From sequence record OR699282.2: 64,000 nucleotides of DNA. One strand, 5' to 3'. A program made the position numbers and the translations under genes. The notes under the pieces were generated by a model. The model was not told the origin of the DNA. It saw only the letters and a list, made by a program, of their open reading frames with translations, and did no database searches. This stretch comes from Escherichia phage BAU.Micro_ELP-22. Positions 3,017 to 52,548 of the stretch are shown here, piece after piece (position 1 is the first letter of the stretch; every line of letters starts with the position of its first letter).

Positions 3017-5680
3017 ATGGCAGGAGATCTACTCTCACCTGGCGTTTCCATTTCAGTAACTGATGAAAGTATGAGTACCGCTGCTGCTCCTGGCACTGTA
3101 CCACTATTTGTAATCGCTACTGCTGAAGACAAACTTGTCCCAGGAAGCAGTGCAATAGCTGCGGGAACTACTAAAGCAAACGCTGGAAAACTACAGCTTC
3201 TAACATCACAAAAAAGCTCACTTGATACCTATGGTACACCAATTTTTCAAATGAATAACGGTTCTGTTGTTCAAGGTGATGAACTAAACGAATATGGCCT
3301 ACATGCAGTATATTCTTATCTAGGCATTACTAACCGTGCATATGTAATTCGTGCTGATATCGATCTAGCACAACTAGCACCAAGTGCTGAAGCACCAACT
3401 GGCCCAGTATCCAATGGTACTTTGTGGTTTGATACCGCACAATCACAAGTAGAAGCGTATGTAGCGAAGAAAGATAGTCCAAGCAGTTTTTATGATTGGC
3501 AACTTAAGCCAGTAACTATTGTAAGTGCTGAAGAAGTTGAAGATGTAAGTCTAGTAGGTTTAAATGTTGATGATTTAGTTCTACGTTACAAACCAAGCAA
3601 TGGTCAGATGCTAATGTATAAACGTTCTGCTTCTGGGCTAGTGCAAATGGAAACTTATCTATCACCAATTAACAAAGTTCCAGTTGGCTCAACTGTAGAA
3701 AAAGGTAACATTTGGATTCGTGATGGTTACACCCAAAATGGTTCAAACTATTTTGGTACTCGTTTTGTTATTAAACGTTATGCATCCCTAACTCAAGTTT
3801 GGAATATTGTACCAGCATATACTGGTAATTCATTCCAAGAAATTGAAGCGAAAAGTGGTGTACTAAACAATAGTTATATCGCATCTCGTTTTGATGAAGA
3901 TAGTAAGAGTTTCTCTTTCTATATTCAAAGTGCAAAACTAACAACAATTAGTGCTCCTGCTTTGCCACTTGGTGAAACTATTATTGAACAAGCAGGTGCT
4001 GATAGTTATATGACTTTTGTTTATTTGAATAAATCAGTTAAAGTACTAGCAGTTCCACAAGGCGGTGTTATTAATACCCAAACTATCATCAATAATCTAA
4101 ATGCAAATGCTGAAATTATTAACGATGGTTTTAAATTTAAACGTGAAACTAATGGTGGTTTAGTTGTTTCCAATACAAAAGGTTACAGTTTCAAAATCAC
4201 ACAAAGTGGTGATGATATTTTTGCTGAATCTGAACTACAAAAACTAACAGTAGATAGTAACAACTACTCTCTAATTAACGTGAATAACTTCCGTGTTAGT
4301 TATTCAGTACCACGTAGTGTAGCAAAAGAAGGAACTCTCTGGTATGATTTCGGGAACTCCGATAATCTAACTGTAACTATGTATGTTGCTGATGTTGCTA
4401 ATGATGAATGGGATCTAGTACAAGAAGAAAACAAATATGTACAAGTTGATGAACCAGCGGCTGACCGTTTAATTTGGGTTTGTCCTTTGTCTCAAGGCAT
4501 TGATGGTTATGATTTCTATCGTAACGTTGATGGTGAATGGGTTAAACTTGACAGTACTGATCAAAGTACACTAAATGGTATGATTTTCCAAGACTTTAAT
4601 TTCCCAAGCCAAGTTCCTGCTGCGGCATTGTATCAAAATGGTATGCTTGCAGTTGACCTAGGTAACACTGAAGGTGTTGTTAAGAAAATGGTTAATGGTC
4701 AATGGGAAGTTGTTAGTGGTGTAAGTCTTGATGGTGCTGGCCTATTTGGTCGTGCTGCACAACGTCAACTAGTAGTTGAAGCACTAGCTGCTGTTATTAT
4801 TGGTAATGATGACATTCGTTCTGAATTTATTGATTTTAACCTAATTTGTGTACCTGGTTACGTTGAAACACTTGATGAATGTGTAACTTTAAACACTGAT
4901 CGTAAAGAAACTGCATTTATTGTTACTGACGTTCCAGCACGTTTGAATCCAACTGGAAACGGTAGTGCTGTACAACAATGGGCTACTAATGCTAACAATG
5001 CACCAAGCAACGGTTCAGTTGGTCGTACAACTGCTTATGATTATGCTGCTCAGTATATGGGTTGGTGTCTAAGTACTAACGTTGATGGTGAAGAAGTTGC
5101 AGTTCCTGGTAGTACTATTGCAATGCGTACATATGCATACAGTGATAGTGTTAGTTATGTATGGTATCCACCTGCTGGTACAACTCGTGGTGTTGTAACA
5201 AACGCTGCAAGTACTGGTTTTATCAACAGCGAAGGTGAATATCAACCAGTAGTATACAACCAAGGTCAACGTGACGTTATGTATACTAACAACATTAACC
5301 CAATTGCAATGCGTCCTAACCGTGGTTTGCTTGTTTATGGAGATAAAACTCTATCTGCTAATCAAACTTCTGCACTAAGTCGTGTTAACGTTGCTCGTTT
5401 AGTTGTTTATATTCGTCGTCAACTAGAAATTATTTCCGAACCATTCCTATTCCGTTTGAATACTCCAAGTACTCGTCAGGAATTTAGTGGTGTAGTTAAT
5501 AGCTTCTTGGCTGAAATTGTTCAACAACAGGGTCTTTATAACTTCGCAGTGGTTTGTGATGAAAGTAACAACACCGCAGAGCGTATTGACCGTAATGAAC
5601 TTTGGATGGATATTGCAATTCAACCAACTAAGAGTATTAACTTCATTTACGTACCAATCCGTATCGAGAAAACTCAATAA
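3017..5680 (+). CDS. tail sheath protein (large, 887 aa)
   Basis: N-terminal MAGDLLSPGVSISVTDES... and C-terminal ...RLVVYIRRQLEIISEPFLF... have the character of contractile tail sheath proteins; sits directly upstream of tube-like genes; strong SD. Confidence 0.75.
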   Translation: MAGDLLSPGVSISVTDESMSTAAAPGTVPLFVIATAEDKLVPGSSAIAAGTTKANAGKLQLLTSQKSSLDTYGTPIFQMNNGSVVQGDELNEYGLHAVYSYLGITNRAYVIRADIDLAQLAPSAEAPTGPVSNGTLWFDTAQSQVEAYVAKKDSPSSFYDWQLKPVTIVSAEEVEDVSLVGLNVDDLVLRYKPSNGQMLMYKRSASGLVQMETYLSPINKVPVGSTVEKGNIWIRDGYTQNGSNYFGTRFVIKRYASLTQVWNIVPAYTGNSFQEIEAKSGVLNNSYIASRFDEDSKSFSFYIQSAKLTTISAPALPLGETIIEQAGADSYMTFVYLNKSVKVLAVPQGGVINTQTIINNLNANAEIINDGFKFKRETNGGLVVSNTKGYSFKITQSGDDIFAESELQKLTVDSNNYSLINVNNFRVSYSVPRSVAKEGTLWYDFGNSDNLTVTMYVADVANDEWDLVQEENKYVQVDEPAADRLIWVCPLSQGIDGYDFYRNVDGEWVKLDSTDQSTLNGMIFQDFNFPSQVPAAALYQNGMLAVDLGNTEGVVKKMVNGQWEVVSGVSLDGAGLFGRAAQRQLVVEALAAVIIGNDDIRSEFIDFNLICVPGYVETLDECVTLNTDRKETAFIVTDVPARLNPTGNGSAVQQWATNANNAPSNGSVGRTTAYDYAAQYMGWCLSTNVDGEEVAVPGSTIAMRTYAYSDSVSYVWYPPAGTTRGVVTNAASTGFINSEGEYQPVVYNQGQRDVMYTNNINPIAMRPNRGLLVYGDKTLSANQTSALSRVNVARLVVYIRRQLEIISEPFLFRLNTPSTRQEFSGVVNSFLAEIVQQQGLYNFAVVCDESNNTAERIDRNELWMDIAIQPTKSINFIYVPIRIEKTQ

Positions 5681-13398: not shown

Positions 13399-13794
13399 AT
13401 GCAATATAATTATCGTGAACTAGTTGAAGCGTTAGACGAAATTACCGGAAGAGATGAAGACGAAAGTTTTTCAGTTGAAGTTGAATCCGATGTTGTAGCA
13501 GTTGATGTTCTTAAGGATATTACCAAATGTCTTATTGATATTGTTGATAAGATTAAATCTGGTGAAGACCAAAAAGAAATTGTAGATAAACTACAAAAAG
13601 CCTGTGACATTTTGTCTGACATTCGATATAATGATGAAAGTACTGAAGTTGCTGATGAAGAAGTGTTGGAAGCCATTGCAGGTTGTTTTGGAACTGAAGG
13701 TATGGGACCAACAATTGACAAAGAAGGCGTACAACACTATAATGAGCCTGGTGCACCATCTTATGCTGCACGTCAAGGTTTTGTTGGAGACTAA
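13399..13794 (+). CDS. hypothetical acidic protein
   Basis: ATG 2 bp after previous stop. Confidence 0.4.
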   Translation: MQYNYRELVEALDEITGRDEDESFSVEVESDVVAVDVLKDITKCLIDIVDKIKSGEDQKEIVDKLQKACDILSDIRYNDESTEVADEEVLEAIAGCFGTEGMGPTIDKEGVQHYNEPGAPSYAARQGFVGD

Positions 13795-13797
13795 TAT

Positions 13798-14178
13798 ATG
13801 TTTCCAGAACCATCACATAACAGTACTGAATATCAAAATAATGTACTTTCCAAAGTTAGGGAAGTACATGAATCAGATTCAGAAATAACAGACCGTATGC
13901 TTCTGATGTCAATTTTTGAAAATTTCAGAACTGGCGGTGGTTTACGTCTTAGCAAGTTTGGGTATGGAATTTGTAAAGAAAATAATCTTTATGAATTTAC
14001 AAAAATCCCCTTGCAAAGAGAATTTAAAAGTTCTATAATGTTTACATCACTTGACAGAATATGTACTTCACCTTATTATGTTGAAGGTCAGTACATATAT
14101 CTGACAGATGCAATGATAATAACTGAATTAACATTGTGTTGTGATGATTTTAAACAGTTATTTTCTATTCATATGTAA
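13798..14178 (+). CDS. hypothetical protein
   Basis: ATG start; no motif. Confidence 0.4.
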   Translation: MFPEPSHNSTEYQNNVLSKVREVHESDSEITDRMLLMSIFENFRTGGGLRLSKFGYGICKENNLYEFTKIPLQREFKSSIMFTSLDRICTSPYYVEGQYIYLTDAMIITELTLCCDDFKQLFSIHM

Positions 14179-14323: not shown

Positions 14324-14492
14324 GTTCACATCAAGACAGCAAAGAGATTTACCTTTTAAACACACGGATGATTCATGAAGTAACAAAGGAACTGATAAGT
14401 TAAATTATTTTAACACAGTTCCTTTACTTTTGCCCACGGATTGGCTATAATAGAAACTTAAACGATTTTATCCAACAAAAGGAAATATATAC

Positions 14493-15818
14493 ATGACTAC
14501 TCAAAACGATATCCTGAACGTTAAACTGACTCCAAAGAAAGCTAAAGAAGCAATGGCACTAGCTGACATGATTCAAGATAGCCTGATGATTTGGGGTAGC
14601 CCAGGTATCGGTAAGTCTGCAATCGCTCGTCAATACGCTGATGAAAATTACCCACTGCGTAAAGATAACGTAGCTAAAATCGAGTTCATGAAACAACAAA
14701 TCGAAGCTGACCCTGAAAATGCTGATCAGCTACGTCGTGAACTGGCTGCATTTGAAGCAAAACTAATCGACCAAGATACTAACTTTATCGATTTCCGTTT
14801 GTCTCAAATCGAACCAAGTGACCTTCGCGGTATTCCAGTACCAGAGAAGCTTTTCCGTAAAACTGACGGTTCTCTTCTGAAAGAATCTGAGCTTGCCGAA
14901 GCAAAAGATTATGTAGCTGAAACTGCGGTAGTATGGGCTGCACCTAAAGTTCTGAAATTGTCCGAAGATTGGAAAGGTGTTATTCTGTTTGACGAAATTA
15001 ACTCTGCAATGCCTATTGTTCAGGCAGCGTCTTATCAGCTAATCCTCGACCGTTGTGTTGGTGAGATGAAGCTACCTAAGACTGCACTGATTCTTGCAGC
15101 AGGTAACCGTGAAACTGATGGCGGTGTAACTTTCTCTCTTGCTACACCACTGCGTGACCGTATGACTCACATTGAGATGATTCCTTATCATCAAGATTGG
15201 ATTAACGATTATGCGATTGCAAAACGTTTGAACCCAGCAACTGTTGCGTTCATCAACAACACTGGTTCTAAGTACTTTAACACACTTAGTCCACAAGATC
15301 CTTCTCACAGTGGTGGTACTTCTCCACGTTCATGGGAAGCAGTAGCACGCTACGAAGATCTCAAGAAAACTAAGACAATTGATAAAGAAGTGTTCCGTGC
15401 AATGATTGCTGGTCGTGTTGGTGAAGGTGTTGCAACTGAATACATTGAGTACGTTGAGAACGTTGCTAAACTACCAGATACTATGTCTATTCTGTCTGGT
15501 GAAATCAAAGAAATCGACGCAACGCTGGATATTTCTGCGAACTACTTTATCACTCTGAACTTGGTTTATAAAATTATCGACCTGTTCAATGAGAAGCAAG
15601 AACAACGTCTACCAGTGGAAGAATGGGGTAAACTGTGTAACAACTTCATCACCTTCCTAGACCATAACTTCTCTGCAACTCAAGCAGAACTGGCAGTACT
15701 GGCAATTCGTACCATCACGCTTCATAAGGTTGCGATTTCCATTAAAGATGTACCAGCGTTTAAAGATTTCATCGCTAAGTACTCTGATCTTGTACGTAAA
15801 GCACGCTCTCTTGGCTAA
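14493..15818 (+). CDS. MoxR-family AAA+ ATPase
   Basis: Walker A GSPGIGKS (14595-14618); Walker B ILFDEINSA; MoxR-like blocks RLSQIEPSDLRGIP and ALILAAGNRETDGG. Confidence 0.8.
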   Translation: MTTQNDILNVKLTPKKAKEAMALADMIQDSLMIWGSPGIGKSAIARQYADENYPLRKDNVAKIEFMKQQIEADPENADQLRRELAAFEAKLIDQDTNFIDFRLSQIEPSDLRGIPVPEKLFRKTDGSLLKESELAEAKDYVAETAVVWAAPKVLKLSEDWKGVILFDEINSAMPIVQAASYQLILDRCVGEMKLPKTALILAAGNRETDGGVTFSLATPLRDRMTHIEMIPYHQDWINDYAIAKRLNPATVAFINNTGSKYFNTLSPQDPSHSGGTSPRSWEAVARYEDLKKTKTIDKEVFRAMIAGRVGEGVATEYIEYVENVAKLPDTMSILSGEIKEIDATLDISANYFITLNLVYKIIDLFNEKQEQRLPVEEWGKLCNNFITFLDHNFSATQAELAVLAIRTITLHKVAISIKDVPAFKDFIAKYSDLVRKARSLG

Positions 15819-15833
15819 TTAACAAAGAGTTGT

Positions 15834-15870
15834 TGACAAGAAGGATGCCTAATGGTATCCTTCTTTTATC
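15834..15870 (+). promoter_or_regulatory. intergenic TTGACA box overlapping a weak hairpin (possible internal promoter or attenuator)
   Basis: GTTGACAAG at 15833-15841; AAGGAT...ATCCTT stem then T-rich tract; -10 candidate TATCCT is weak. Confidence 0.3.
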
Positions 15871-15892
15871 TTAACTAAACGAGGAAATATAC

Positions 15893-17317
15893 ATGTCAGA
15901 TAACAAATCTACTTCAAGATTCAATGAAGTATCTCCGGCACTCCAGAAAGAATGTCAAGAACGTCTGGTTCTGGCTCGTACATCTTTGATGTTAACTGCA
16001 CCATTCTTTGGTGTACTCGCTTCACGTTTACGTCCAGTTCCTAATAATACATGGTGTCGTACTCTAGCAGTGGATGGTAAACATCTATTCTACAACGTAG
16101 AATTTGTAATGGGCATTCAAGACCCATCTAAAAAGAAAGAATATGAAGAAGCTATTCGTGAAAAGCACCCTGAAGTTACAGACGAACAATTAAAAGAAAT
16201 GACTGAAGGTTTGACTGATGAAAACCTTGTTGCTGTAATTTGTCATGAAATTCTACACTGTGCTTACGATCACTTCCTTCGTCGTGGTATGCGTGATCCG
16301 CAACGTTATAACCGTGCAGCGGATTATGCCATTAACCAAATCATCGTTCGTGAGAAAATTGGAAAAATCCAAAGTTCATGGTTGTATGATAAAAAATATG
16401 AAGGTATGACCGCAGAAGAGATTTACATTCTTCTTGAAGAAGAAGAACAAAAAGAAGATGGTGAAGGTGAAGGTCAACCACAAAGTGGTGGTGGCGAAGG
16501 TGAAGGTAAAAATCGCGGTACTTTTGGCGATATTAAAGATGGTAAGGGTAAACCAAAAGGTACTACCATTGACCAGCATGACGTTCCACAAGAAGGTCAA
16601 GAGGGTGGTTCAAGTGAACAGCAAAAACGTGATTACATGGATGATTTCAAAACAGCAATGATGAATGCTGCTCGTGCAGGTGGTACACCAGCAGAAATCG
16701 CTCGTATGATTAACAACTTTAAAGAACCAAAGATTGACTGGCGTTCAAAACTTCAACGTACACTTCGTAGTTGGTTGAAGTCTGATGCAACATATCAAAA
16801 TCCGAATCGTCGTTCTTGGGGTGCAGGTTTTGGTTCTAATGGTTCATTCTATGGTAATCCAATTTACCCAGGGATGAAACCAGATGATGATATTGATATT
16901 GCGATTGCACTAGATGCTTCTGGGTCTATTTCTGAAGATATGCTTCGTGATTTCATTAGTGAAGTTCTTGGCATCACTAAACAATTCAAACAGTTTAAGA
17001 TTCGTATCATGACTTTTGATACTGAAGTTTATACTGTAAAGGATTACAAAACTGGCGAAGAACGTAAGATTCTGGAATATCCAGTAAAAGGTGGTGGTGG
17101 TACTGACTTTGAAGCAGTATGGGTTCATATGAAGAACGACAACTACAAGCCTAAACAGCTTGTAATGTTTACTGATGGTGAACCGTGGCAGTCATGGGGT
17201 GATCCAAACTACTGTAAAACACTGTTCGTGATTCACAGTAACCCAAATAAAGTTGCACCATTTGGTGAGACTGTACACTACGAATATGAAGCTGATAAAA
17301 AGCGTCAACGTAGTTAA
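15893..17317 (+). CDS. VWA-domain protein with an N-terminal HExxH (metallopeptidase-like) domain
   Basis: HEILHCAYDH in the N-terminal half; complete MIDAS in the C-terminal half (DASGS ... GGGTD ... FTDGEP). Confidence 0.75.
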   Translation: MSDNKSTSRFNEVSPALQKECQERLVLARTSLMLTAPFFGVLASRLRPVPNNTWCRTLAVDGKHLFYNVEFVMGIQDPSKKKEYEEAIREKHPEVTDEQLKEMTEGLTDENLVAVICHEILHCAYDHFLRRGMRDPQRYNRAADYAINQIIVREKIGKIQSSWLYDKKYEGMTAEEIYILLEEEEQKEDGEGEGQPQSGGGEGEGKNRGTFGDIKDGKGKPKGTTIDQHDVPQEGQEGGSSEQQKRDYMDDFKTAMMNAARAGGTPAEIARMINNFKEPKIDWRSKLQRTLRSWLKSDATYQNPNRRSWGAGFGSNGSFYGNPIYPGMKPDDDIDIAIALDASGSISEDMLRDFISEVLGITKQFKQFKIRIMTFDTEVYTVKDYKTGEERKILEYPVKGGGGTDFEAVWVHMKNDNYKPKQLVMFTDGEPWQSWGDPNYCKTLFVIHSNPNKVAPFGETVHYEYEADKKRQRS

Positions 17318-17329
17318 GTACTAAATAAT

Positions 17330-17360
17330 GAGAACGGAATTTTCCGTTCTCTTCTTTTAT
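17330..17360 (+). terminator. rho-independent terminator
   Basis: GAGAACGG-aatt-CCGTTCTC stem followed by TTCTTTTAT. Confidence 0.65.
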
Positions 17361-21943: not shown

Positions 21944-23680
21944 TTAAACTACAGAAACTCCACTCATTGAAGGTGGAACGATTTGTTCAGCAATTAATAA
22001 TAAATTAGTTACTGTAAACTTACCACCATGTGACATTAACGTAATAGGTGTTCCATTAGTTACTAGGTTACCATTTTCATCAACACTTAAAAATGTATTA
22101 AATGAAATAGTATCAACCGTGATAGTTGGTGTTCTAACTTGATTGATATTATTAAATTGAGTATTTGTAAAATTAATAGCAAAACTCATATTAGACGAAC
22201 TAGTAGTCCATGTACCGTATATATTTAATTTGAAATTTAGAGAGGAATTGAAATTATAAACATTTAACTTATTACTTGTTGTATTGAAGAAACTATCTAG
22301 TGTTCCACTAGTGGGTGTGAATGATTTAAGTATTTGAATTAAATTTTGTTCAATTCCATCAGTGAATTGTATATTTAAGTTTGAATAATATAATTCTCTT
22401 TTTCGACGAATTAGGTTAGTAGTATTATTACCATTAACAAATAATCCAGTACTATCTGATGTTAATATATTACCAGAGGTATTACTGATTTTAGATGAAA
22501 TTACATTAGCGTCAATAGATATACCATTTCCCGCAGTATATGAGGATGGCCCAGATGGAACATACAACCCATTTACGTCAGTTGTTAACGTATTTCCTGG
22601 CGTTGTGCTTATTTTAGTTGAAATTGTTTCAGAACTAATAGATATACCAGTACCACCAACGTAATTTATTCTTGTATTAGGTACAAATAATCCAGTACTG
22701 TCAGTAGATAGTATATTACCAGAAGTAGAACTAATTTTAGTACTGATTACTTCACCACTGATAGAAACACCGGAACCAGCACTATAAGATACTGAATTAT
22801 CAGGCACAAATAAACCATTACTTGTAGAAGATAGTATGTTTTCTGATGTCGGGTCAACCTTCACACTTATTACATCATCACTAATTGAAATTCCATTTCC
22901 TCCATTATAAGTAATTGAGCTATTAGGTACGAATAATCCATTAATATCTGATGTTAGTATATTACCAACAGTAGAACTAATTTTAGTACTTATTTGGTCA
23001 TCACTAATAGTAATGCCAGTACCAGCATTATAAGTTATCGAATTATCCGGCACGAATAGACCAGTACTATCAGTTGTAAGGATATTTCCTAAAGATGTGC
23101 TTATTTTTGATGATATAATATTATTATCTATTTTAATACTTTCACTACCTGTATATGTTACGGTATTATCAGGTACATATAAACCATCTTCGGCAATCGT
23201 GAGGATGTTACTAGGTGATGTACTGATTTTAGTTGAGATAGTATTATCACTTATTGATACACCCGTGCCACCAGAATACACAATTGAGGTATTAGGTACA
23301 TATAAACCATTAGCATCAGATATCAGAATATTTCCAGAATTTAAACTCACTTTAGCAGATATAACATTTGTATTAACATCTATACCATTTCCAGCTACAT
23401 AACTTACAGTATTATCAGGAACATACAAACCATTAGAATCATTACTAAGAATATTGCCTTGTGTTGAACTTATTTTTGTGGATATTAAATTAGAAGATAT
23501 TGATATACCAGTTCCACCTTGATAGTTAATAGTATTATCTGGAACATATAAACCATCACTTTCATGAATTAAAATATTTTTATTTTTAGTACTAATATCA
23601 GGCACTGGTATCTTGCCTATTAGTTCGCCGTCATAACTGATATCACCATTTACAATAATATCTGTTCTTATATTATACAT
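21944..23680 (-). CDS. tail fibre protein with about eleven tandem ~35-aa repeats
   Basis: Repeats of ...ISTKISSTxGNILTxDSxGLFVPDNSxxYxxGxGISIS...; ORF-track start 23704 is TTG, first ATG with SD at 23680. Confidence 0.55.
   Translation of the reverse strand: MYNIRTDIIVNGDISYDGELIGKIPVPDISTKNKNILIHESDGLYVPDNTINYQGGTGISISSNLISTKISSTQGNILSNDSNGLYVPDNTVSYVAGNGIDVNTNVISAKVSLNSGNILISDANGLYVPNTSIVYSGGTGVSISDNTISTKISTSPSNILTIAEDGLYVPDNTVTYTGSESIKIDNNIISSKISTSLGNILTTDSTGLFVPDNSITYNAGTGITISDDQISTKISSTVGNILTSDINGLFVPNSSITYNGGNGISISDDVISVKVDPTSENILSSTSNGLFVPDNSVSYSAGSGVSISGEVISTKISSTSGNILSTDSTGLFVPNTRINYVGGTGISISSETISTKISTTPGNTLTTDVNGLYVPSGPSSYTAGNGISIDANVISSKISNTSGNILTSDSTGLFVNGNNTTNLIRRKRELYYSNLNIQFTDGIEQNLIQILKSFTPTSGTLDSFFNTTSNKLNVYNFNSSLNFKLNIYGTWTTSSSNMSFAINFTNTQFNNINQVRTPTITVDTISFNTFLSVDENGNLVTNGTPITLMSHGGKFTVTNLLLIAEQIVPPSMSGVSVV
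22460..23600 (-). repeat. in-frame tandem coding repeats (~105 bp unit, about 11 copies)
   Basis: Periodic peptide repeat visible in the translation of 21944-23680. Confidence 0.6.
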
Positions 23681-23700
23681 ATATTTTTCCTTATAATGAA

Positions 23701-23728
23701 ACAAAAAAAGGTCAACTATTGTTGACCT
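23701..23728 (-). terminator. rho-independent terminator (minus strand)
   Basis: AGGTCAAC-tatt-GTTGACCT with a T-tract on the minus strand. Confidence 0.55.
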
Positions 23729-38620: not shown

Positions 38621-40110
38621 TCTGTGTCCTTATGTATGCGATAAACAGTATTAGGCTTAACTGCGTCATGTAATGGAACTTTGTTATCACTATTTACAAA
38701 CTGTGTAAGTGCTAAGTCTGCACCTTCCCACGGTTTTCTTCCACCATAATCAAAAATAACCCATGAATTCTTAGTTGCATTGAATTCCCATAACGTAACT
38801 GGAGTATAATCGGTGCGATAGAAATAGTCACCATCTACTGCATCAGTTGGGAACATATTTCCTTCAGGGACTGTACCTCGTGCTGGTGGAATTTTAGGAC
38901 GATAATCTTGTTGCGAATCAATATTACCATATACACAATTGGACGTGAATGGTTCATTGACATAAGTTACCTTTGGTTCCCCCCACTTGTCATCATTATA
39001 CTGATAAATGTGTGGTTCTTTATAAAAAATACAAAAATCTTCCACATCTTCTGGTGGAACATCACTGGTAGTATATTCTACATCACAATTTAACCATTTT
39101 TTAGCACTTTTATCATATTGATACAACGTATAACCTGTCACATCTGCGTCATTTTCTTTAAAGAAGAAGTCACCATCCATTGGTTTTCTGGGAAAGATGG
39201 TTCCACGCTTGACTTCCACAGAAATCCATGTATCATTAACAAACTCTTTGAGTACTGGGTATGTTTTTTTCAAAAAATACATTCCATTGGCAGGTTCTTC
39301 TGGAAAATCATAACCGTTAAGCATATATTTTGATAAATCTACTGTATCAGGTCGATCATCATACAAATGTTCATTTGTATAATGAATATAGGGTACTTCA
39401 TCATCAGCTTGCATGATGATACGGTTCATGATATCCATTTCATTGCCATAGTTACTGTTTTCCGACGAACCATCATCGGTATTTCCATTACCATTATTAG
39501 GGTCATCTGGATTATCAGGATAATTATTGTTACCGAGTAAATCGGAGTACTCAGGTGAGTCGGTTAGCGGTTTAACTCTAAGTTTATAAATGTGATGTTG
39601 CCACGTAACCGAGTATCCCTCAGATGTACGAAATGCATCTTGGACGACATAGAAGCGGTTTAGACCTGTATCTTTACCCAATACATCAAAATCACGTAAA
39701 TTTGGTAGTTCTATCACATCCCCTGGCATGATTTTTCTACCTAAACGCTGCATCATTGTATTATAATGGATTGTGATGTCCATAGTGTTGAAATTAAAGA
39801 ACAATCCTGGGATTTTCAAGTCTGGAGTTGCTTCTTGAACTTGATAGACACAACTAAGTGTGATAGCTTCAAGGTTGTAGTTTCTGTTTGGTGTGTCACC
39901 AAAAATTAAATCGCCAATACTTGACACAACTGATCCTGAAGATGTATAATCACCTCCATAGGATAAGTCAGTGTTGTCAGCAACTTGTTTTGGACCGACA
40001 TATGCATAAAGCCACATGTCAACTCCACCAATGTTGTATTGTTCAGCAATGGCAGAATCAATGAACTTGTAATCATTGGTTCTACCTTTTTTCCACATTC
40101 TATATGTCAT
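38617..40110 (-). CDS. hypothetical protein
   Basis: ORF-track start 40122 is TTG; first ATG with GGAGA SD at 40110; D/N/G-rich low-complexity segment. Confidence 0.45.
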   Translation of the reverse strand: MTYRMWKKGRTNDYKFIDSAIAEQYNIGGVDMWLYAYVGPKQVADNTDLSYGGDYTSSGSVVSSIGDLIFGDTPNRNYNLEAITLSCVYQVQEATPDLKIPGLFFNFNTMDITIHYNTMMQRLGRKIMPGDVIELPNLRDFDVLGKDTGLNRFYVVQDAFRTSEGYSVTWQHHIYKLRVKPLTDSPEYSDLLGNNNYPDNPDDPNNGNGNTDDGSSENSNYGNEMDIMNRIIMQADDEVPYIHYTNEHLYDDRPDTVDLSKYMLNGYDFPEEPANGMYFLKKTYPVLKEFVNDTWISVEVKRGTIFPRKPMDGDFFFKENDADVTGYTLYQYDKSAKKWLNCDVEYTTSDVPPEDVEDFCIFYKEPHIYQYNDDKWGEPKVTYVNEPFTSNCVYGNIDSQQDYRPKIPPARGTVPEGNMFPTDAVDGDYFYRTDYTPVTLWEFNATKNSWVIFDYGGRKPWEGADLALTQFVNSDNKVPLHDAVKPNTVYRIHKDTE

Positions 40111-40152
40111 GATTGTCTCCAAAATAAATCGGGTATATCTTTATTTACCTTG

Positions 40153-40180
40153 TAGACAAACCGTAAGAATGTGATATAAT
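40153..40180 (+). promoter_or_regulatory. sigma70-type promoter (TAGACA, 16 nt, TGaTATAAT)
   Basis: -35-like 40153-40158; TG 40172-40173; TATAAT 40175-40180. Confidence 0.55.
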
Positions 40181-40220
40181 GTTTATTAATTAGAGTGACG
40201 TGAATCACATAGGAGAATAC

Positions 40221-42509
40221 ATGAATCTTACTCAATTGTTCAAAAAAAGCGACGAACTGGCAACATCTCTAGGTCATACATTCTTGACTATTGACCACGT
40301 AAGTGCCACAGTACTGACTATTGATAGCATCAAGAACGTATTTGAAGATATGAACATTGATGCAGACAAACTGCACAACCGCCTGATGAACTATCTTAAA
40401 AATACAACAGTTCCACATGCACCAAAAAGTGTTAAAGATGAAGACGCGAATCGCACTTCACTTCTAGTGAATCGCGTTGTACATGAGCTTTCTAAAAAAT
40501 CAGTTATTGAACAACTAAAAAGTGATGATTTTTCGATTGATGCATATTTTGTTCTATTCGAATGTCTGTCTTTCCCTAACACAGCACTAGAAGCTGCGTT
40601 AAAAGAAGAAGGTGTTAGCTGTACTGAAGCTGCACGTGCATTACAGAAACATGTTGAGTCACTTGATAAGGGTATCAACTTACAAAGTATTAATGACGAA
40701 CCGATTGGAGATAAAAAAGTGGCCCAACAGCAGCAATCATCTAAACAAAAAGGTTTGGAAGACTATACAACGAATCTAACTGCTCTTGCAAAAGAAGGCA
40801 AACTAGATCCTATGATTGGTCGCCAGAAAGAATTGTCTGCATTGATTGAGACTCTTGCTCGCAAAACCAAAAAGAATGCTATTCTCACTGGTGAAGCTGG
40901 TGTAGGTAAAACACAAATCATCGACGGGCTTGCACAAGCTATTGCTGATGGTAACGTACCTGAACACTTGAAAGACGTTGAAATTCTTTCACTAAATGTT
41001 GGTGCATTGACTGCTGGTACTAAGTATCGTGGTGAGTTTGAAGAACGCATCGACAATTTGCTAAAAGAACTAAAGAAACGTGAAAATACTATTGTTTTCA
41101 TTGATGAAATTCATATTATGGTTGGGGCTGGTTCCGCAAGTAATGGTTCTATGGACATGAGCAATATGCTTAAGCCAGCACTTTCACGTGGTGAGATTCG
41201 TGTAATTGGTGCAACAACATATGATGAATATCGTAAAAATATCGAGAAAGATAGTGCATTAACTCGTCGTTTTATGAAAATTGACGTAGTTGAGCCGACA
41301 ATTGATGAAACTCGTGCAATTGTTAATGGTTTGAAACCAACGTATGAAAAATTCCATAATGTTGAGTTCACATCTGATGCAATGGATGCTGTAATTTCTC
41401 TCAGTGATAAATTCCTGAAGAATAAGCACTTCCCAGATAAAGCAATTGATCTAATGGATGCTGCTGCGGCTAAAGTTCGTTCACGTGACAACAATAGTAA
41501 GCTTATTACTGCCAATTTGATTCAAGAAGTTGTTGCTGGTATTGCCAATTTGGATATCAACGTGGTTGCATGTACTGAAAGTGATCGTATGCGTAATCTA
41601 CCAGATGCACTACGCTCACGTGTATACGGTCAAGAGGAAGCTATTCAAAAATTAGTTGATAACGTGATGGTAGCTCGTGCAGGACTGCGTGACAAATCTA
41701 GTGTTCAGGGTGCATTTATGTTTGTTGGACCATCTGGTACTGGTAAAACAGAAATTACCAAAGCATTAGCAGACGCAACTGGTGCGGAACTCATTCGCTT
41801 TGATATGTCAGAATTTTCACAAGAACATACTGTTTCTAAACTAATTGGTTCACCTCCAGGTTATGTTGGTCATGATTCTGGTAACGGTTTACTGTTGGAT
41901 AAAATTGAGCAGTTCCCTAATGCAGTACTGTTACTTGATGAAATTGAAAAAGCAGATCGTAAAGTACTACTAACCTTCCTACAGGTTTTGGATGAAGGTC
42001 GTCTGACTGGTTCTCAAGGTAAAACTGTATATTTTAATAACGTAACTGTTATTATGACTACAAACCTTGGTGCGGCTGATTCAACAAAGCGTAGCATTGG
42101 TATGAGCGGTAGTGACACTGCACAGGACAAGGCAATTAAAGCATTCTTGCCACCAGAGTTTATTAACCGTATTGATAGTATCGTTACGTTTAAAGACCTA
42201 AGCAGTGAAGCTATTGACAGCATCATTGATAAGTTCATGGGTGGTTTGAATGAACAAGTCAAAGACCGTAATGTTAAAGTTACATTGACAAAAGCTGCAC
42301 GTGAATGGCTTGCGAAAAATGGGGTAAAAGTTGGTATGGGTGCACGTCCAATGAAACGTACCATTGAACAAAACATTCGTGTGCCACTAGCTAAAGAAAT
42401 GTTGTGTGGTTCACTTGTGAATGGTGGTAACATTACATTTGATGTTATTGATGGTAAAATCGGTATTAAGCCGAAACGTACCAAAGCTGTAGATAAAGCA
42501 CTAGTATAA
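40221..42509 (+). CDS. ClpA-like double AAA+ unfoldase
   Basis: D1 Walker A GEAGVGKT and Walker B IVFIDEIH; D2 Walker A GPSGTGKT and Walker [10 protein letters not shown]; C-terminal [13 protein letters not shown]; IGM tripeptide in the D2 loop; ORF-track start 40200 is GTG, ATG with AGGAG SD at 40221. Confidence 0.85.
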
Positions 42510-51500: not shown

Positions 51501-52548
51501 GAACCCACAAAGATCCATTCCAGTACATAGAACTATTACCATACTCATTACCTTTAGTGATTAGAACAACATCACCATCTTGAGGTTCACCACTTGGGCG
51601 TGATTCGGTTTCTTCTTCTGGATCTAGTGCTAAACCATAAACACGAGTACCATCTTGCATTTTTTTCACATATACATTATAAATTCTATTGTTTTCACCA
51701 TTGTTACCAATACTGGTGAATAGAATACGCATTCCATCTTGCGGAATAATACCATCAATACGTATACCACTATTAATATCTTTTTGAACGATATCTTCAG
51801 GTTTAATAATATCAGAGAACAGATCAACAGTTCCACGGAATTTTGTACCGTAGTTAATTAGCTCAATATTTTTATTATATTCAATAATTGGTGCACGTGC
51901 ACGAATAAAACGTGAATCTTGCATTAATTCTTCAGTTAATATTGAGCCATCTTCTAATGTTTCACCTAAAGTATACCAAAAGTTTTGTAGTGACCATGTA
52001 TTACCATTAAGTGCTCCACGTTCCATTACAATGTAATCAGGTGAAGTAATATTATAAGAGTTTTTAGTATCCCAAAGATATGAGCTAAAATTGTTCATTT
52101 TATTTGGGTTAATAGCTGGAGTCCATGCATAAAACTTACCGTTGAACAAACGGCTTTCATTATCGGTTAGTGCTCCATAATGATTCATGTATCCAACTAG
52201 ATCATCATAAAATTGAATTGAACGAATTGTCGAATCATCATTTTTTGAGACGTAAGCAGTGGACAACTGATAAAGTTGACGTGCTACAGTACTTTCATGT
52301 AAGAAGATATTACCAGCAGCGGCAGGAGAACCCATATCACCAATATAGCCGTCAACTAATTCGTTTTCAGCCGGATTAAACCATTGTTGAATAACATCAT
52401 CACTGACTTTTTGAATATCTTCTAAGCCTTGCATCCACTCAGGCAATCTTTTAATAAAAAGCTTCTTCTGTACTGCTTCAGCCATCTGTGTAGGTTGAAA
52501 CTTAAAATTATTAGTCATTTTTGGACTCCATATAATTCGTTCATTCAT
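42547..52548 (-). CDS. giant protein (3333 aa), probable baseplate or tail component
   Basis: Uninterrupted 10 kb frame directly downstream of the baseplate-J-like gene; alternative ATG at 52518 has a GGAG SD. Confidence 0.65.
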   Translation of the reverse strand: MNERIIWSPKMTNNFKFQPTQMAEAVQKKLFIKRLPEWMQGLEDIQKVSDDVIQQWFNPAENELVDGYIGDMGSPAAAGNIFLHESTVARQLYQLSTAYVSKNDDSTIRSIQFYDDLVGYMNHYGALTDNESRLFNGKFYAWTPAINPNKMNNFSSYLWDTKNSYNITSPDYIVMERGALNGNTWSLQNFWYTLGETLEDGSILTEELMQDSRFIRARAPIIEYNKNIELINYGTKFRGTVDLFSDIIKPEDIVQKDINSGIRIDGIIPQDGMRILFTSIGNNGENNRIYNVYVKKMQDGTRVYGLALDPEEETESRPSGEPQDGDVVLITKGNEYGNSSMYWNGSLWVRAQSKTSVNVFPKFQLYDRNGIKLDNSTTYPSSNFKGSELFGFKINYNYATDSVYGYNIELGDYNYYIYENFLQSQRYTYDHLGKEVEIDGLYYYNIIDENNEMNLQTDWVRSEEYSKQFVKQTPQVQRTDMYRVFSTVYDMEVFKEPVDGMYAYVIEVDRTYQYYKADRETYLDWHPITGDGVQIVKYDHTFELAQKVLDNDSDIIEVVVDGVDVSKYTKNVSKGQVQSITLDSTVELDEDSVIQIRTYSSTVTPNKELGAYEVPINLQNNPYNSNIIYINQGDYTLHFQDIIQKNITRGSSDDFNDYEERLAKGLVNNGVGTKIIQNEASMLPLMAHTANEDIDLFEATMFMQSEYFRFINKFNTQMLRMYDENPSDFLQNSAANIVDAILTTINMGRDSSFPFYYDNVGSTSGFIRAFIPPTPQFLGILQAYVPEKATFLTAGSKPSCYNISHTGIISKAYRVINGVDKMDDVVYELENRIFNSIDNKFKDVDYVPVLNSDDLFPTPYFTKTEYSAEEKQTLLLRGYINFTATNGISNSTHDYDPNNWRTWNYTGTYYVVNGQSTEIPARGSWRAIYTDQYGTYRPATHPWEMFGFTQRPTWWNQEYEPTAVQVGERDSDVVYVYEALVMNEQGDLVPSGLWDIDGTIGDSSTGTILFGDRRGQYDKYKRFGVQPFKITKTGNKTSSGIDICVVEYIAPEILGLVSGSLNHRAEPWTYGDMGDMEFTYMNTTLFAYDQMMLLYKAKPAQFANYFWDTRNDNLKEVFTDGSQFLYGDTRKRINFDKNTVVHGENSTRTIGYQMFVSDHLMYQNKNITTKYGDVVRSSYINVGHKIGGFTKADQLTFNAKSFGLISQENQTIGLVRSNNIRDEQMSAIKITWNGSAYQIDGYDLVGAKFKYKLPVKNGRKVTLKLENRNVVHYNEWKSEASIEYGKVFNSYQEVYTFICGYGEYLKEHGWIFEDVNDSGAQQDWNTIAKDFVIWSQNSLVTGEFISCTPSAANAKFGADFGSVQSITQNNGGVWSLLDDNNQGIRQYEIETSRIGNIFTVRTLESNKRIALIRLSLCSYEHAVIFDDKTIFGDYIYQPTYGSIQELIKMYGYITGSWTGRLQAPGFIILEAGTLPSFEKLVSDFQHYYDSETPVSDVQLQELSNHLIGYQSRDYLQRMISSDVSRVDFYKGFIHDKGTNQVLERVLRVSKSYDTDEYKALQEWAFKIGTYGNIDGKKNLQFKLINDQFKQQPQMVSFDVNATSNGNGNHIVYFGEQGKDPRWITRPNGKFSFPMRSGRSENIQLPDIGPVTLDEVSYTTKDFSTAYNDRITYTNGKGENPESVWMFKDGNGLWNIFELVDTNVQMVSITPIENTDVYAEQFCKVTLTDNVPLEDGDYYYFVDETNFMPDTLTVESQYYTAGSDPKVMVVPFDTSIDIEFTDPDTRPRLYRYVSRFASTDERQAYIDKKYSFKAPQSTLFDRPTTYDERTNITELYLNVYDPINGVIPGAAMQNVTYTSPVDPAQYNSNGELIQAWGADKVGQVWWNTSTAFYLDYTRAIYDADGNVDIDATNEYKRYNWGRLLPHSTIDVLEWVCSPVEPYNWDKYCKDVAKKNKNNTMYLPSGTALEDNYSTFLEYDSSTDSYVTKYYFWVRDTIYVPPLHTRTKSCTDIARIIKDPTQLNIPWFAPINENSFILSNMQFKVNDDTSILTVSYYMDSTEVVKHDQYQLCKEGDSYNFNPLIWDSMWNSLIGQETTESGSVINLLYPDVDNGLGSNKTWFQNVIEARRNFVESANNYYRSQNITTNSVVMEDVFNVKTTEVNPNEVSFRVLSYNNELVIAVESDKFKENDAVILSTSGYLPNPLTSSAVYFIHFDENGYIQLMNSPANAGSVVTITLENKGEGQHKMIKQSDYVESLGTSLDMTQYWSYADWYDVGYDSNTTYTQESSLEDANTKNYQVGDIIRVTDSENIWTLYIKSQSRDSIYWKAIGRENSTVELNDMLYADYSVHNDNGSLSNREINVRKALALLKNSFDLHQSEIVFDMVKYVHVEQSVVDWVFKTSYIYIVGLEQSLVQNYSNDNLINQIVEYFEEVKPYRTKIRSQIEQKTSDDDLIKGLCNDLDPNGYIFVDSSWIKTEKDIWDYEYAQFNEITQKWEQVGSLPSDFVTPNRRFQEIDIIMHYDNIQCKPNEDLASINELVSVNNKYQSNEKDAVSNYELQRYIYSFPEYSEETFDLLIAYQMQIYYPELDVTLGTAYGVNQWYKDHAEDLEATDEFTATLERVYKESTHNDMFTDLRQYVQYNTLANRLKLYKDISDEKIHDEVGCGFSGLTYNDNPSTRLPLGFSSSNDYNYGYFEISSELYQKYISLIKDKNPDASDYEVKVKLEVEYGVYVYRYDEVGGDTRFYTDAIHVLAGMRGLFDKDATDKYEKAEEILSKTPIDIYAITMIPRKYVYLNVNGVYQSIPDEQSIDDFMEDYFITNGEMVELAEINLDDLPLDQNNPMYSDYQYILDSITEAKYFNDMNAFDNLALESQTSSIKWEVKDDEVDPYIVDISDINPSGRDVGQIRFTVDGYGFDNVSLVQLRDNSRYQTEGMAIINPYKHTEAIVSIPSYAKIENDINKTTSKFDEKYFYRVRSINSLTEAEIVDNDLSDGDKVMIFTPDGEDFVRYQNHTWETILRVSNIKNNTTPILFTVRNTGKETIELIDESTGAVLRYDNITLAQQNEPVQPLALNIVRVRTFADPEFVKNGIKLYEQNRNYTIDVINYDVFYDTTLNGGKYNDGITPDDVDVWIISNEIFDVDGITIDNGYNLPITGAGVLSELARTKMTDSLEINVIEYDSSVIQPFRNNEGIWVYGFPMVDGMYIGVVGGTVTNITTISEENTTYVSQPKSISPYSIRNNVLSGSAANMNDIISIGYEKVEVRNANNLLRGVMYSAEHDFKLNTTYSFNGINLGNYDMLKRYTQNSYTIDLSVYTDSLQVSGNDIKNILLVK

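Follow-up and report, generated by a model that had tools for sequence, protein, structure and literature searches.

Codon usage in the operon of a divergent MoxR-class AAA+ ATPase and its VWA-like partner in Escherichia phage BAU.Micro_ELP-22 (OR699282.2) deviates strongly from that of most other phage genes. Probably, this operon is an old core module that has been inherited vertically, and its codon profile results from sustained translational selection on genes that are driven by sigma70 promoters and tuned to the tRNAs of the uninfected host. The stretch of 64,000 nucleotides that was analysed, hereafter the window, belongs to an Asteriusvirus (PBECO4/121Q/slurp01-type) jumbo coliphage, and whole-genome scoring was performed on the closest complete genome, that of slurp01 (348 kb). 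The features of the operon are listed in Table 1.

Table 1 Features of the ATPase/VWA operon and of its flanks, in coordinates of the window.
Feature	Position	Strand	Description
Promoter P1	14202..14229	+	TTGACA-16-TACAAT, extended -10 TG, 11/12 match; tandem duplicate of P2
Promoter P2	14296..14323	+	Perfect sigma70 consensus TTGACA-16-TATAAT, extended -10 (TGTGATATAAT), 12/12 match
Leader hairpin	14385..14431	+	Conserved; AAAGGAACTG ... CAGTTCCTTT, then a U-rich run; between P2 and the start codon
Possible promoter P3	14423..14451	+	TTTACT-17-TATAAT, 10/12 match; overlaps the 3' arm of the leader hairpin
ATPase gene	14493..15818	+	MoxR-class AAA+ ATPase, 441 aa; codon-usage outlier (CTG-rich, NNC-rich, rare codons absent)
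Intercistronic hairpin	15838..15865	+	12 bp, weak T-run; overlaps the -35-like box TTGACAAG
Partner gene	15893..17317	+	474 aa; DUF2201_N (putative metallopeptidase) fused to VWA-like DUF2201; PF13203 123 bits, PF09967 75 bits
Terminator-like hairpin	17330..17351	.	Bidirectional, 9 bp (5 G-C), at the end of the two-gene unit

The first-pass annotation had described the ATPase gene as favouring CTG, CGT, ATC, AAC and GGT and as shunning TTA and ATA, and its coordinates and counts agree with ours. Leucine is encoded by CTG in 17 of 41 cases and never by TTA, isoleucine by ATC (17) and ATT (20) and never by ATA, and asparagine by AAC (17) rather than AAT (3); CGT accounts for 17 of the 20 arginine codons and GGT for 17 of the 19 glycine codons, with neither AGA nor GGA present. 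The rare codons ATA, AGA, AGG, GGA, CGA and CGG are all absent from the 441 codons of the gene, along which the bias is evenly spread. Its GC3 (0.342) is the highest among the 46 ORFs of the window, and its GC content (0.42) is also the window maximum. With E. coli ribosomal-protein/EF weights, and with a null model in which the protein sequence is fixed and the codons are drawn from genome-wide usage, the gene reaches z = +11.9 in the window, far beyond chance, and z = +13.2 in slurp01, where it ranks first of the 236 genes that have 150 codons or more. A comparison of codon adaptation, gene by gene, as the annotation had proposed, shows it to be the most host-adapted of these long genes. The CAI is 0.562 for the ATPase gene, 0.516 for the VWA gene and 0.49 for the major capsid gene; the genome averages 0.348 (sd 0.065). 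When the value expected from GC3s is subtracted from Nc, a measure that does not depend on the host, the ATPase gene ranks 2 of 139; raw Nc, which is non-discriminating in an AT-rich genome, was set aside in favour of this measure.

The VWA gene is biased in the same direction, but more weakly, with CTG at 4 of 26 leucine codons, CGT at 25 of 27 arginine codons, GGT at 33 of 41 glycine codons, no ATA and a GC3 of 0.253 (z = +8.5, rank 4 of 236 in slurp01). The ATPase gene is far more biased than its partner despite their common transcription unit, which is a point against the selective reading favoured here. The contrast drawn earlier with the tail sheath and nucleotide-metabolism genes applies to thyA and the dNMP kinase gene, which favour TTA/CTA, ATT and AAT, but not to most preferences of the tail sheath gene. 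The latter uses CGT for 33 of 33 arginines, GGT for 46 of 64 glycines, ATA only once, and AAC slightly more than AAT (35 versus 31), and it differs from the ATPase gene chiefly in leucine (CTA 35, CTG 0), as well as in ATC, TTC and TAC. More generally, the ATPase gene is distinguished from the highly expressed late genes mainly by leucine, with CTG in the former and CTA in the latter; in the other families these late genes obey the same preferences, and for leucine they exclude CTG.

Both Walker motifs are present in the ATPase (Walker A, GxxGxGK[ST]; Walker B, hhhhDE), and residues G35, G38, I39, G40, K41, S42, D167 and E168 are invariant among 16 homologues, down to 37% identity. The Pfam models of the MoxR group remain below threshold (AAA_3, PF07726, 16.7 bits for a cut-off of 27; AAA_5, PF07728, also sub-threshold), the generic AAA model (PF00004) being the only one to reach its cut-off (21.3 versus 21.2), and NCBIfam and PDB sequence searches returned no match. 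Nevertheless, homologues detected at E-values of 1e-43 to 1e-48, with identities of 28-33%, contain PF07726, PF07728 or both, which indicates a transitive homology to MoxR. A Foldseek search with the ATPase model (pLDDT 80.9) gave NorQ as top match (E ~1e-4, probability 1.0) and also listed CbbQ, with TM scores of only 0.2-0.37 and similar values for other AAA+ clades; the model shows an additional insertion made of helices and, at the C-terminus, ~200 aa that are likewise helical. The VWA partner gene adjoins the ATPase gene, and the pair is kept in 18 of 18 lineages. The arrangement, an AAA+ ATPase followed by a VWA-like protein with an N-terminal metallopeptidase domain, is that of the MoxR/vWA pair of the 'group 2.2' jumbo phages, predicted to be an assembly chaperone (Iyer et al. 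2021, PMC7824862), whose cellular counterparts are NorQ-NorD and CbbQ-CbbO. In contrast to this known pair, the ATPase studied here is highly divergent, with no Pfam MoxR model above threshold, and its function is a predicted one, that of a MoxR-vWA chaperone to which a metallopeptidase is fused. Mass spectrometry of phAPEC6 virions detected the syntenic ATPase gp265c (49.52 kDa) through 6 peptides, for a coverage of 19% (PMC7247149). In the literature searched, we found no earlier description of the codon bias of this ATPase gene or of its promoter.

The first-pass annotation had considered a recent acquisition from a bacterial source, in which case the operon would stem from a bacterial donor whose codon usage is similar to that of E. 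coli and would not yet have ameliorated to the AT-richness of the phage. The GC and GC3 of the ATPase gene, the frequency of MoxR/VWA pairs in bacteria and two homologue matches labelled Salmonella enterica are in line with this, but these two matches sit on contigs of 350-370 kb with full jumbo-phage synteny. Among 5.8 billion proteins searched, the nearest ATPase homologues are all jumbo-phage proteins, and bacterial-type AAA_3/AAA_5 proteins appear only at ~33% identity or less; the relatives found in an IMG/VR scan are mostly at ~30% identity. The pair occupies the same syntenic slot in the 18 lineages, from 94% down to 48% identity, the latter in a Vibrio phage, and it diverges at the pace of its neighbours: the identities to four relatives are 93.7, 79.3, 59.9 and 58.4%, for neighbour-gene medians of 88.9, 69.7, 59.3 and 58.4%. 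The non-coding DNA that flanks the operon is ordinary AT-rich phage DNA, with an intergenic GC of 0.27-0.32. Compositional islands due to horizontal transfer also stand out from their neighbours in GC3 and codon usage, but the phyletic patchiness, discordant divergence, closer foreign homologue and atypical flanks that characterize such islands are all missing here. Instead, the pair has descended vertically, as a module of the core that jumbo phages of the RaK2/121Q/GAP32 type have in common.

The composition of the bias also argues against an acquisition. The ATPase gene has an excess of 46 G/C-ending codons, distributed over leucine (+11.5), asparagine (+10.6), isoleucine (+10.2), phenylalanine (+5.3), aspartate (+4.9) and tyrosine (+4.0), with no such excess in the proline (CCG 0 of 19), glutamine, threonine, valine, glycine, serine and alanine families. 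Its codon shift goes along with the shifts of the phage capsid gene (rho = 0.66) and of the ribosomal-protein genes of E. coli (r = 0.59), but no correlation is seen for E. coli genes of the ordinary kind (r = 0.19, with a partial coefficient of -0.67). Moreover, synonymous sites are saturated between the lineages that have the bias in common. Compared with the window, conserved residues keep the same codon at a frequency of 0.62 in RaK2 and of 0.51 in meta55, both CTG-type, for 0.51 expected in each case, and the ATPase gene of SE_PL exhibits CTA at 35 of 37 conserved leucine positions, 15 of which are CTG in the window. The near-independence of codon identity between CTG-type lineages and this directional replacement by CTA show that the bias is kept despite synonymous turnover. 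Selection is therefore supported ahead of a foreign origin, as the shift parallels that of ribosomal-protein and capsid genes and persists across saturated synonymous sites, and the recent acquisition, contradicted by synteny, matched divergence, phage-only close homologues, ordinary flanks and a codon-specific GC3 excess, appears highly improbable.

We give equally little credence to a local mutational or transcription-associated bias that would have raised third-position C and G in a heavily transcribed gene without any selection. Strong promoters do lie upstream, and the GC skew is slightly negative (C > G) over positions 15001-16000, but a bias of this kind should affect all codon families and the adjacent non-coding DNA, whereas only six amino acids show the excess and GC stays low between the genes. 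In the Salmonella phage Munch/SE_PL, which has a degraded -35 box, the ATPase gene now encodes leucine by CTA, a codon that ends in A, in 96% of cases. In addition, deamination of the non-template strand would lower C on the coding strand and not raise it, which is opposite to the rise in C observed here.

The selection that we favour would act through the host tRNA pool. The codons of the ATPase gene would fit the pool of the uninfected host: leucine takes CTG, asparagine, isoleucine, phenylalanine, tyrosine and aspartate take C-ending codons, the four-fold families take CGT, GGT, ACT and TCT, and ATA, AGA and GGA, which are codons of the phage's own tRNAs, are avoided altogether. The most biased genes shun codons to which phage tRNAs correspond, namely those of Arg-UCU, Gly-UCC, Ser-UGA and Thr-UGU and of a tRNA with a CAU anticodon. 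Cowe and Sharp (1991) reportedly found that early and late phage genes differ in their codons and that phage tRNAs provide for codons seldom used by the host. The present case resembles the temporal classes of codon usage known from T4 and other phages in that codon choice splits the genes of one genome by promoter or time class, and it resembles the T4-type supply of tRNAs for host-rare codons in that the phage tRNAs correspond to codons avoided by the most biased genes. It differs from the T4 type in that the sharpest split is between CTG and CTA, with a host-rare codon, CTA, preferred late and no phage tRNA found that reads it, and in that the outlier gene sits within the late structural block. 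Temporal-class codon usage in phages is also the subject of a comparative study (PMC5683454).

In the Asteriusvirus lineage, P1 and P2, two sigma70 promoters of consensus type arranged in tandem, would drive the operon; promoters of this class serve the early genes of the phage group. Three promoter classes have been described for CBB and GAP32 (PMC5259590). The late motif ATAAATA is found upstream of the capsid, sheath, tube, scaffold and baseplate genes and is absent upstream of the ATPase gene, which, with TTGACA-N16-18-TATAAT upstream, falls in the RpoD-like (early) promoter class of RaK2-like phages (PMC5259590). Near-perfect sigma70 sites number 110 on the + strand and 11 on the - strand of the genome, for ~17 expected per strand, and slurp01 has 11 copies of the P2 motif TGTGATATAAT, all of them on the + strand. 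The leader alignment shows P1 only in the Asteriusvirus and WPEC3 lineages. The -10 element of P2 is homologous in all aligned lineages, while its -35 box depends on the lineage; the TATAAT of P3 is present in the window and in WPEC3, with near variants in meta68 (CATAAT) and in RaK2-like phages (TATCAT). The leader hairpin shows paired substitutions in a conserved block and folds in 9 of 9 lineages tested (-13 to -18 kcal/mol, z from -2.6 to -5.8). It is apparent from single-sequence folds and inspection of the alignment, whereas RNAalifold gave no structure on the MAFFT leader alignment, in which the stems were out of register owing to loops of 4-22 nt; the leader has no match in Rfam. This hairpin resembles an intrinsic terminator or attenuator and, being located between P2 and the gene, could limit P2-driven expression. 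The intercistronic hairpin may similarly be a partial terminator between the ATPase gene and its partner.

Leucine codon choice follows promoter class. Genes close to sigma70-type promoters use CTG for a fraction of 0.142 of their leucines, versus 0.063 elsewhere (p = 7e-5), and genes with classic promoters differ from those with late promoters in both CTG (0.121 versus 0.031) and CTA (0.101 versus 0.283; p ~0.013). In the late genes, CTG is depleted (O/E 0.34) and CTA enriched in the reading frame only; CTG being abundant out of frame, an avoidance of this trinucleotide at the DNA level was ruled out. A profile common to most early genes, which the first-pass annotation had named as the outcome that would speak against its reading, is not found: in the early region, CTG, TTA and ATA represent 9%, 36% and 25% of the relevant families, and only a small subset of early genes, located behind consensus sigma70 promoters, exhibits an ATPase-like profile. 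CTA is also the rarest leucine codon of the E. coli ribosomal-protein genes (2 of 384). A phage tRNA-Leu(UAG) was considered as the basis of the CTA preference and rejected, as it is absent from slurp01 and as the 38 kb of Munch that were scanned contain tRNA-Leu(UAA) only. Sharanji likewise has no tRNA-Leu(UAG) (PMC11895373).

Among the 18 lineages, the three with a TTGACA -35 box have a CTG-type ATPase gene (0.41-0.76), the five of the same clade with a degraded -35 box have a CTA-type gene (0.65-1.00), and in the five of the TGAAAC class CTG does not exceed 0.08. In the ATPase orthologues, leucine choice flips along with the -35 box; as the lineages are related by descent, this association has only a few independent transitions behind it, on an unbootstrapped NJ tree. 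A single origin of CTG on the branch of Asterius and RaK2 was withdrawn, as wider sampling shows the CTG and CTA states to be interspersed.

High expression alone, with no role for timing, would account for part of these observations if CTG and CTA were near-equivalent good leucine codons between which the choice drifts or is lineage-specific, independently of the promoter. In 10 of 14 lineages, the ATPase gene ranks first or second in bias among the long genes, regardless of its leucine codon, TTA is at or near zero in the ATPase gene of most of the 18 lineages, the protein is found in virions (PMC7247149), and meta68, meta60, meta55 and meta50 are of the CTG type although no strong sigma70 promoter can be recognised in them. 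Nonetheless, CTG and CTA are partitioned by promoter class within one genome and CTG is nearly excluded from highly expressed late genes, so that the two codons are not equivalent in the same cell; moreover, the eight upper-clade lineages sort perfectly (8/8) by the quality of the -35 box. We therefore regard an effect of abundance alone as unlikely.

The sustained, sigma70-linked translational selection proposed above is close to the very high early expression that had been suggested as the other explanation of the codon profile. Several independent computations support efficient translation on host tRNAs, and for the early timing the evidence is that of the promoters. That the ATPase gene is among the most codon-selected genes in nearly every lineage points to high or time-critical expression. 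From the sequence, we infer that the promoters probably fire early, that the protein is probably abundant and that tRNA supply is the probable selective agent. A late expression would also fit the position of the operon among the late structural genes, the virion-assembly role predicted for it and the presence of the ATPase in virion preparations, and sigma70-type promoters may be active throughout infection.

A more specific reading, which we put forward tentatively and consider rather unlikely, is that the temporal programme of the phage comprises two leucine-codon 'dialects'. CTG would be translatable only early, as long as tRNA-Leu(CAG), the major leucine tRNA of the host, lasts, CTA would be efficient later, and the ATPase gene would have been re-timed repeatedly. 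Infection would in this case alter the supply of leucine tRNAs, for instance by the loss of the CUG reader, whereupon CTA would become the efficient codon. A loss of the CUG-reading leucine tRNA in T-even infection is said to have been described by Kano-Sueoka and Sueoka and by Yudelevich (1971). If this reading is true, the leucine codons of a gene help to set when its protein can be made, and the MoxR ATPase has been re-timed in evolution by coupled changes of its -35 box and its leucine codons.

The operon provides an example of codon bias linked to expression and time in a phage, and it warns against taking an atypical GC3 as a sign of horizontal transfer. It also places a little-studied MoxR-vWA-peptidase module among the most strongly selected genes of a jumbo-phage clade, above the capsid gene, which argues for a protein that is abundant or made very fast rather than for the catalytic amounts expected of a chaperone. 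Finally, the most abundant late proteins prefer CTA, the rarest leucine codon of the host, with no matching phage tRNA found, and the split between CTG and CTA offers a testable handle on whether leucine decoding is rewired by infection.

The counts bear out the codon profile that the first-pass annotation had claimed for the ATPase gene. Leucine is encoded by CTG at 17 of 41 positions and never by TTA, isoleucine by ATC 17 times and never by ATA, asparagine by AAC (17) versus AAT (3), arginine by CGT (17/20) and glycine by GGT (17/19). The six rare codons are absent from its 441 codons, the bias is even over the full gene length, and GC3 (0.342) is the highest within the window, while the intergenic DNA flanking the operon is ordinary (GC 0.27-0.32). 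For genome-wide statistics, 589 ORFs were called in slurp01, the closest complete genome, and 236 long genes were ranked by CAI, the weights being derived from E. coli K-12 (30 genes for ribosomal proteins and elongation factors). The ATPase ranks third (0.562) and its VWA partner fourth (0.516), the mean being 0.348 (sd 0.065) and the capsid value 0.49. When codons were drawn according to genome-wide usage with the protein sequence fixed, the ATPase reached z = +13.2 (rank 1 in slurp01) and the VWA gene z = +8.5 (rank 4). A host-independent measure, Nc minus the GC3s expectation, places the ATPase first or second in bias among long genes for 10 of 14 lineages, and in mid-rank only for the GAP32/Eneladus/Yersinia clade. 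The same annotation had named a shared profile in most early genes as the outcome that would refute it; the bulk of the early region, with CTG at 9%, TTA at 36% and ATA at 25%, shows no such profile. Host adaptation on a par with that of the ATPase is seen in just one other gene (CAI 0.57, z = +12, GC3 0.44), which encodes a further, small AAA-type P-loop ATPase (PHROG 1250) and lies immediately downstream of a near-perfect sigma70 promoter.

The operon region is 99.2-99.9% identical to Asteriusvirus jumbo coliphages with ~348-kb genomes (slurp01, PBECO4, 121Q, phAPEC6 and Sharanji). The gene pair was interpreted in 'group 2.2' jumbo phages as a chaperone and cochaperone of MoxR-vWA type, to which a peptidase is fused, and a role in virion assembly was proposed for it (Iyer et al. 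2021, PMC7824862). The ATPase scored below threshold against MoxR sequence models; AAA_3/AAA_5 domains are present in its homologues at 28-33% identity, and its AlphaFold model (pLDDT 80.9) has NorQ and CbbQ as top structural matches, with low TM-scores.

Coordinates of the features discussed (window positions unless a genome or locus is named)
Feature	Position	Strand	Remarks
Divergent AAA+ ATPase ORF	14493-15818	+	
DUF2201_N (putative metallopeptidase) + DUF2201 (VWA-like) domain protein	15893-17317	+	
P1	14202-14229	+	11/12 positions, extended -10
P2	14296-14323	+	12/12 positions, extended -10
Four further sigma70-like sites	13604-13632, 13715-13743, 14011-14039, 14051-14079	+	10-12/12
Leader hairpin with U-run	14385-14431		between extended -10 promoter and ATPase start; conserved
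12-bp hairpin, weak T-run, overlapping TTGACAAG box	15838-15865		between ATPase and VWA gene
Most biased late genes	slurp01 275782-276957 (capsid), 273004-273864, 287013-288316, 293863-294915; window 3017-5680 (sheath)		CTA 55-80% of Leu, CTG ~none; effect in-frame only
ClpA-like ATP-dependent protease gene	40200-42509		promoters near 39920-40180
586-aa ORF	21944-23704	-	GC 0.30, Asn/Ile-rich
Small P-loop ATPase gene	slurp01 51731-52501 (L002:1731-2501)		
tRNA-Ser (ACT)	slurp01 L001 15634-15725; Munch L105 4655-4745		long variable arm (ARAGORN)
Split thymidylate synthase gene	L099 15207-17150; L098 15271-16517		metagenomic relatives

Two explanations had been offered for the ATPase profile, namely recent acquisition from a bacterial source and selection for translation on host tRNAs. 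Homologues of the ATPase were found in 815 phage records and 598 IMG/VR stretches. Among 5.8 billion proteins searched, all matches from 94% to ~35% identity are on jumbo-phage-sized contigs or phage-named, and bacterial-type MoxR domains appear only at ~33% identity or lower. Gene order (sheath ... structural genes - ATPase - DUF2201 ... thyA) is kept in 18 of 18 lineages, as far as a 48%-identity Vibrio phage. The identities of the ATPase and VWA genes to four relatives equal the median of the neighbouring genes, and hence there was no gene replacement. The ATPase excess of 46 G/C-ending codons is restricted to Leu, Asn, Ile, Phe, Asp and Tyr; CCG accounts for 0 of 19 prolines. Taken against the phage background, the codon shift tracks E. 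coli ribosomal-protein genes (r = 0.59) and the capsid gene of the phage (rho = 0.66); for ordinary E. coli genes there is no such correlation (r = 0.19, partial coefficient negative). Between lineages whose ATPase is CTG-type, i.e., prefers CTG for leucine, synonymous sites have reached saturation or come near it, the same codon being kept at a fraction of 0.62 of conserved residues for RaK2 and 0.51 for meta55 (0.51 expected for both). In the SE_PL lineage, 35 of 37 conserved Leu positions are now CTA. Taken together, synteny, neighbour-like divergence, codon-specific excess and saturated synonymous sites rule out a recent or an ancient unameliorated transfer, and support sustained translational selection as the force that shaped the ATPase codons. 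The proposal of selection on host tRNAs is supported by the codon shift and the saturation; the early timing attached to it is suggested by the promoter class.

With regard to the late structural genes, avoidance of ATA, AGA and GGA and preference for CGT, GGT, ACT and TCT are common to capsid, sheath and ATPase, and the ATPase and capsid are alike in preferring AAC and ATC. What sets the ATPase apart is its Leu codon choice, with 41% CTG, compared with 0 in both the capsid (CTA 80%) and the sheath (CTA 55%). The contrast with the tail sheath drawn initially holds chiefly for leucine, but not for CGT and GGT preference or ATA avoidance. Genes with a strong bias (TTA below 10%) fall into two types. 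The capsid, scaffold/core, sheath and several replication-region genes are CTA-type, and the ATPase, g82375 and g155300 are CTG-type; the CTG type is represented in the 200-348 kb half of slurp01 by the ATPase alone. In late genes, CTG is depleted (O/E 0.34) and CTA enriched (O/E 3.08) in the reading frame only, so the pressure is on decoding and not on DNA. CTA is the rarest Leu codon of E. coli ribosomal-protein genes (2/384), and yet it is favoured by the most strongly biased late genes. Seven tRNAs, with none for leucine, are encoded by slurp01 and likewise by Sharanji (PMC11895373). Phage Munch, which carries an SE_PL-type ATPase, has a tRNA-Leu with anticodon UAA within the 38 kb scanned; despite this, its ATPase uses TTA at 0% and CTA at 96%. 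One possibility is that an infection-driven shift of Leu-tRNA supply underlies the CTA preference; in T-even infection, the host CUG-reading tRNA-Leu is reportedly cleaved. slurp01 and Munch each have a tRNA with a long variable arm that is assigned by ARAGORN as tRNA-Ser (ACT); A34 is unusual for an anticodon in bacteria-type decoding.

The predicted promoters P1 and P2 lie in tandem inside the 314-nt gap 5' of the ATPase. The four further sites fall in small structural ORFs just 5' of the operon, and one is kept in the WPEC3 and RaK2-like lineages. The near-perfect sigma70 sites of slurp01 are split 110 to 11 between the + and - strands (~17 expected for each), the perfect sites 29 to 0, and TGTGATATAAT 11 to 0. 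This extreme asymmetry implies that transcription by the host polymerase would proceed almost wholly along one strand. The distant relative PA5oct is host RNA polymerase-dependent, with sigma70-like promoters and early genes transcribed from nearly one strand only (PMC7318152); a literature search for an Asteriusvirus transcriptome found none. Among ten + strand sites in the slurp01 stretch matching the window, six are within 1.3 kb 5' of the ATPase, three precede the ClpA-like gene and one is elsewhere. Strong sigma70/extended -10 promoters precede one other non-structural gene of the late block, the ClpA-like gene, whose codon adaptation is raised (z ~+6 to +7; CTG 14%). The CBB study described three promoter classes in the clade, RpoD-like (early), divergent with -35 TGAAACG (chiefly 5' of DNA-synthesis genes; GAP32 has it too) and late ATAAATA (PMC5259590). 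The T4-like ATAAATA motif is found at late genes and is lacking at the ATPase, whose promoter class points to early expression. Across slurp01, genes directly behind strong sigma70 sites have more CTG (0.142 vs 0.063, p = 7e-5) and higher CAI, and classic- and late-promoter genes differ in CTG (0.121 vs 0.031) and CTA (0.101 vs 0.283; each p ~0.013). In phAPEC6, the 49.52-kDa ATPase gp265c, encoded between thymidylate synthase and sheath, was detected in purified virions by 6 peptides (19% coverage), and the VWA partner is absent from the list (PMC7247149). This fits an abundant protein and says nothing on timing.

Promoters and Leu codons were compared over 18 related lineages. The extended -10 element 5' of the ATPase is homologous in every aligned lineage, and the -35 box is variable. 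The three TTGACA lineages (window, WPEC3 and RaK2-like) are all CTG-type (0.41-0.76), and five others in this clade, whose -35 box is degraded, are all CTA-type (0.65-1.00): meta82 (TTGAGA-18), the sister of window and WPEC3, meta77 (GAGACA), and meta75, SE_PL and meta73 (GGGACA). In the five TGAAAC-class lineages, CTG is at most 0.08. Exceptions are meta68, meta60, meta55 and meta50, which are CTG-type with no clear strong promoter. As the lineages are related and the NJ tree is unbootstrapped, these represent a few independent transitions, not 18. A single derived branch for the CTG profile was dropped after CTG/CTA states were compared over more lineages.

The leader hairpin has homologues in loci L009-L012 and L093-L097 of related lineages, with paired substitutions in the stems and a loop that measures 4-8 nt in GAP32-type phages and is enlarged in the Asterius/RaK2/SE_PL clade (15-22 nt). 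Its role could be that of an attenuator, or it may form a small-RNA 3' end; an Rfam search with it gave no match. The intergenic hairpin could cause partial termination, which may be the reason why the ATPase codons are more optimised than those of the VWA gene. The thymidylate synthase gene, which lies 3' of the operon, is interrupted in L099 by a gene for a homing endonuclease of GIY-YIG/I-TevI-like type, located between its two halves. The 586-aa ORF, with a C-terminal tail-needle-knob domain (PF16532), has no counterpart in slurp01 or at the four diverged loci used for comparison, and resembles an exchangeable cassette for the tail tip or receptor binding.

The link of phage codon bias to expression and time is an already known phenomenon. 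The ATPase as the most host-adapted gene, the CTG/CTA Leu dialects and the switching of dialect with the -35 box are new details of it rather than a new category.
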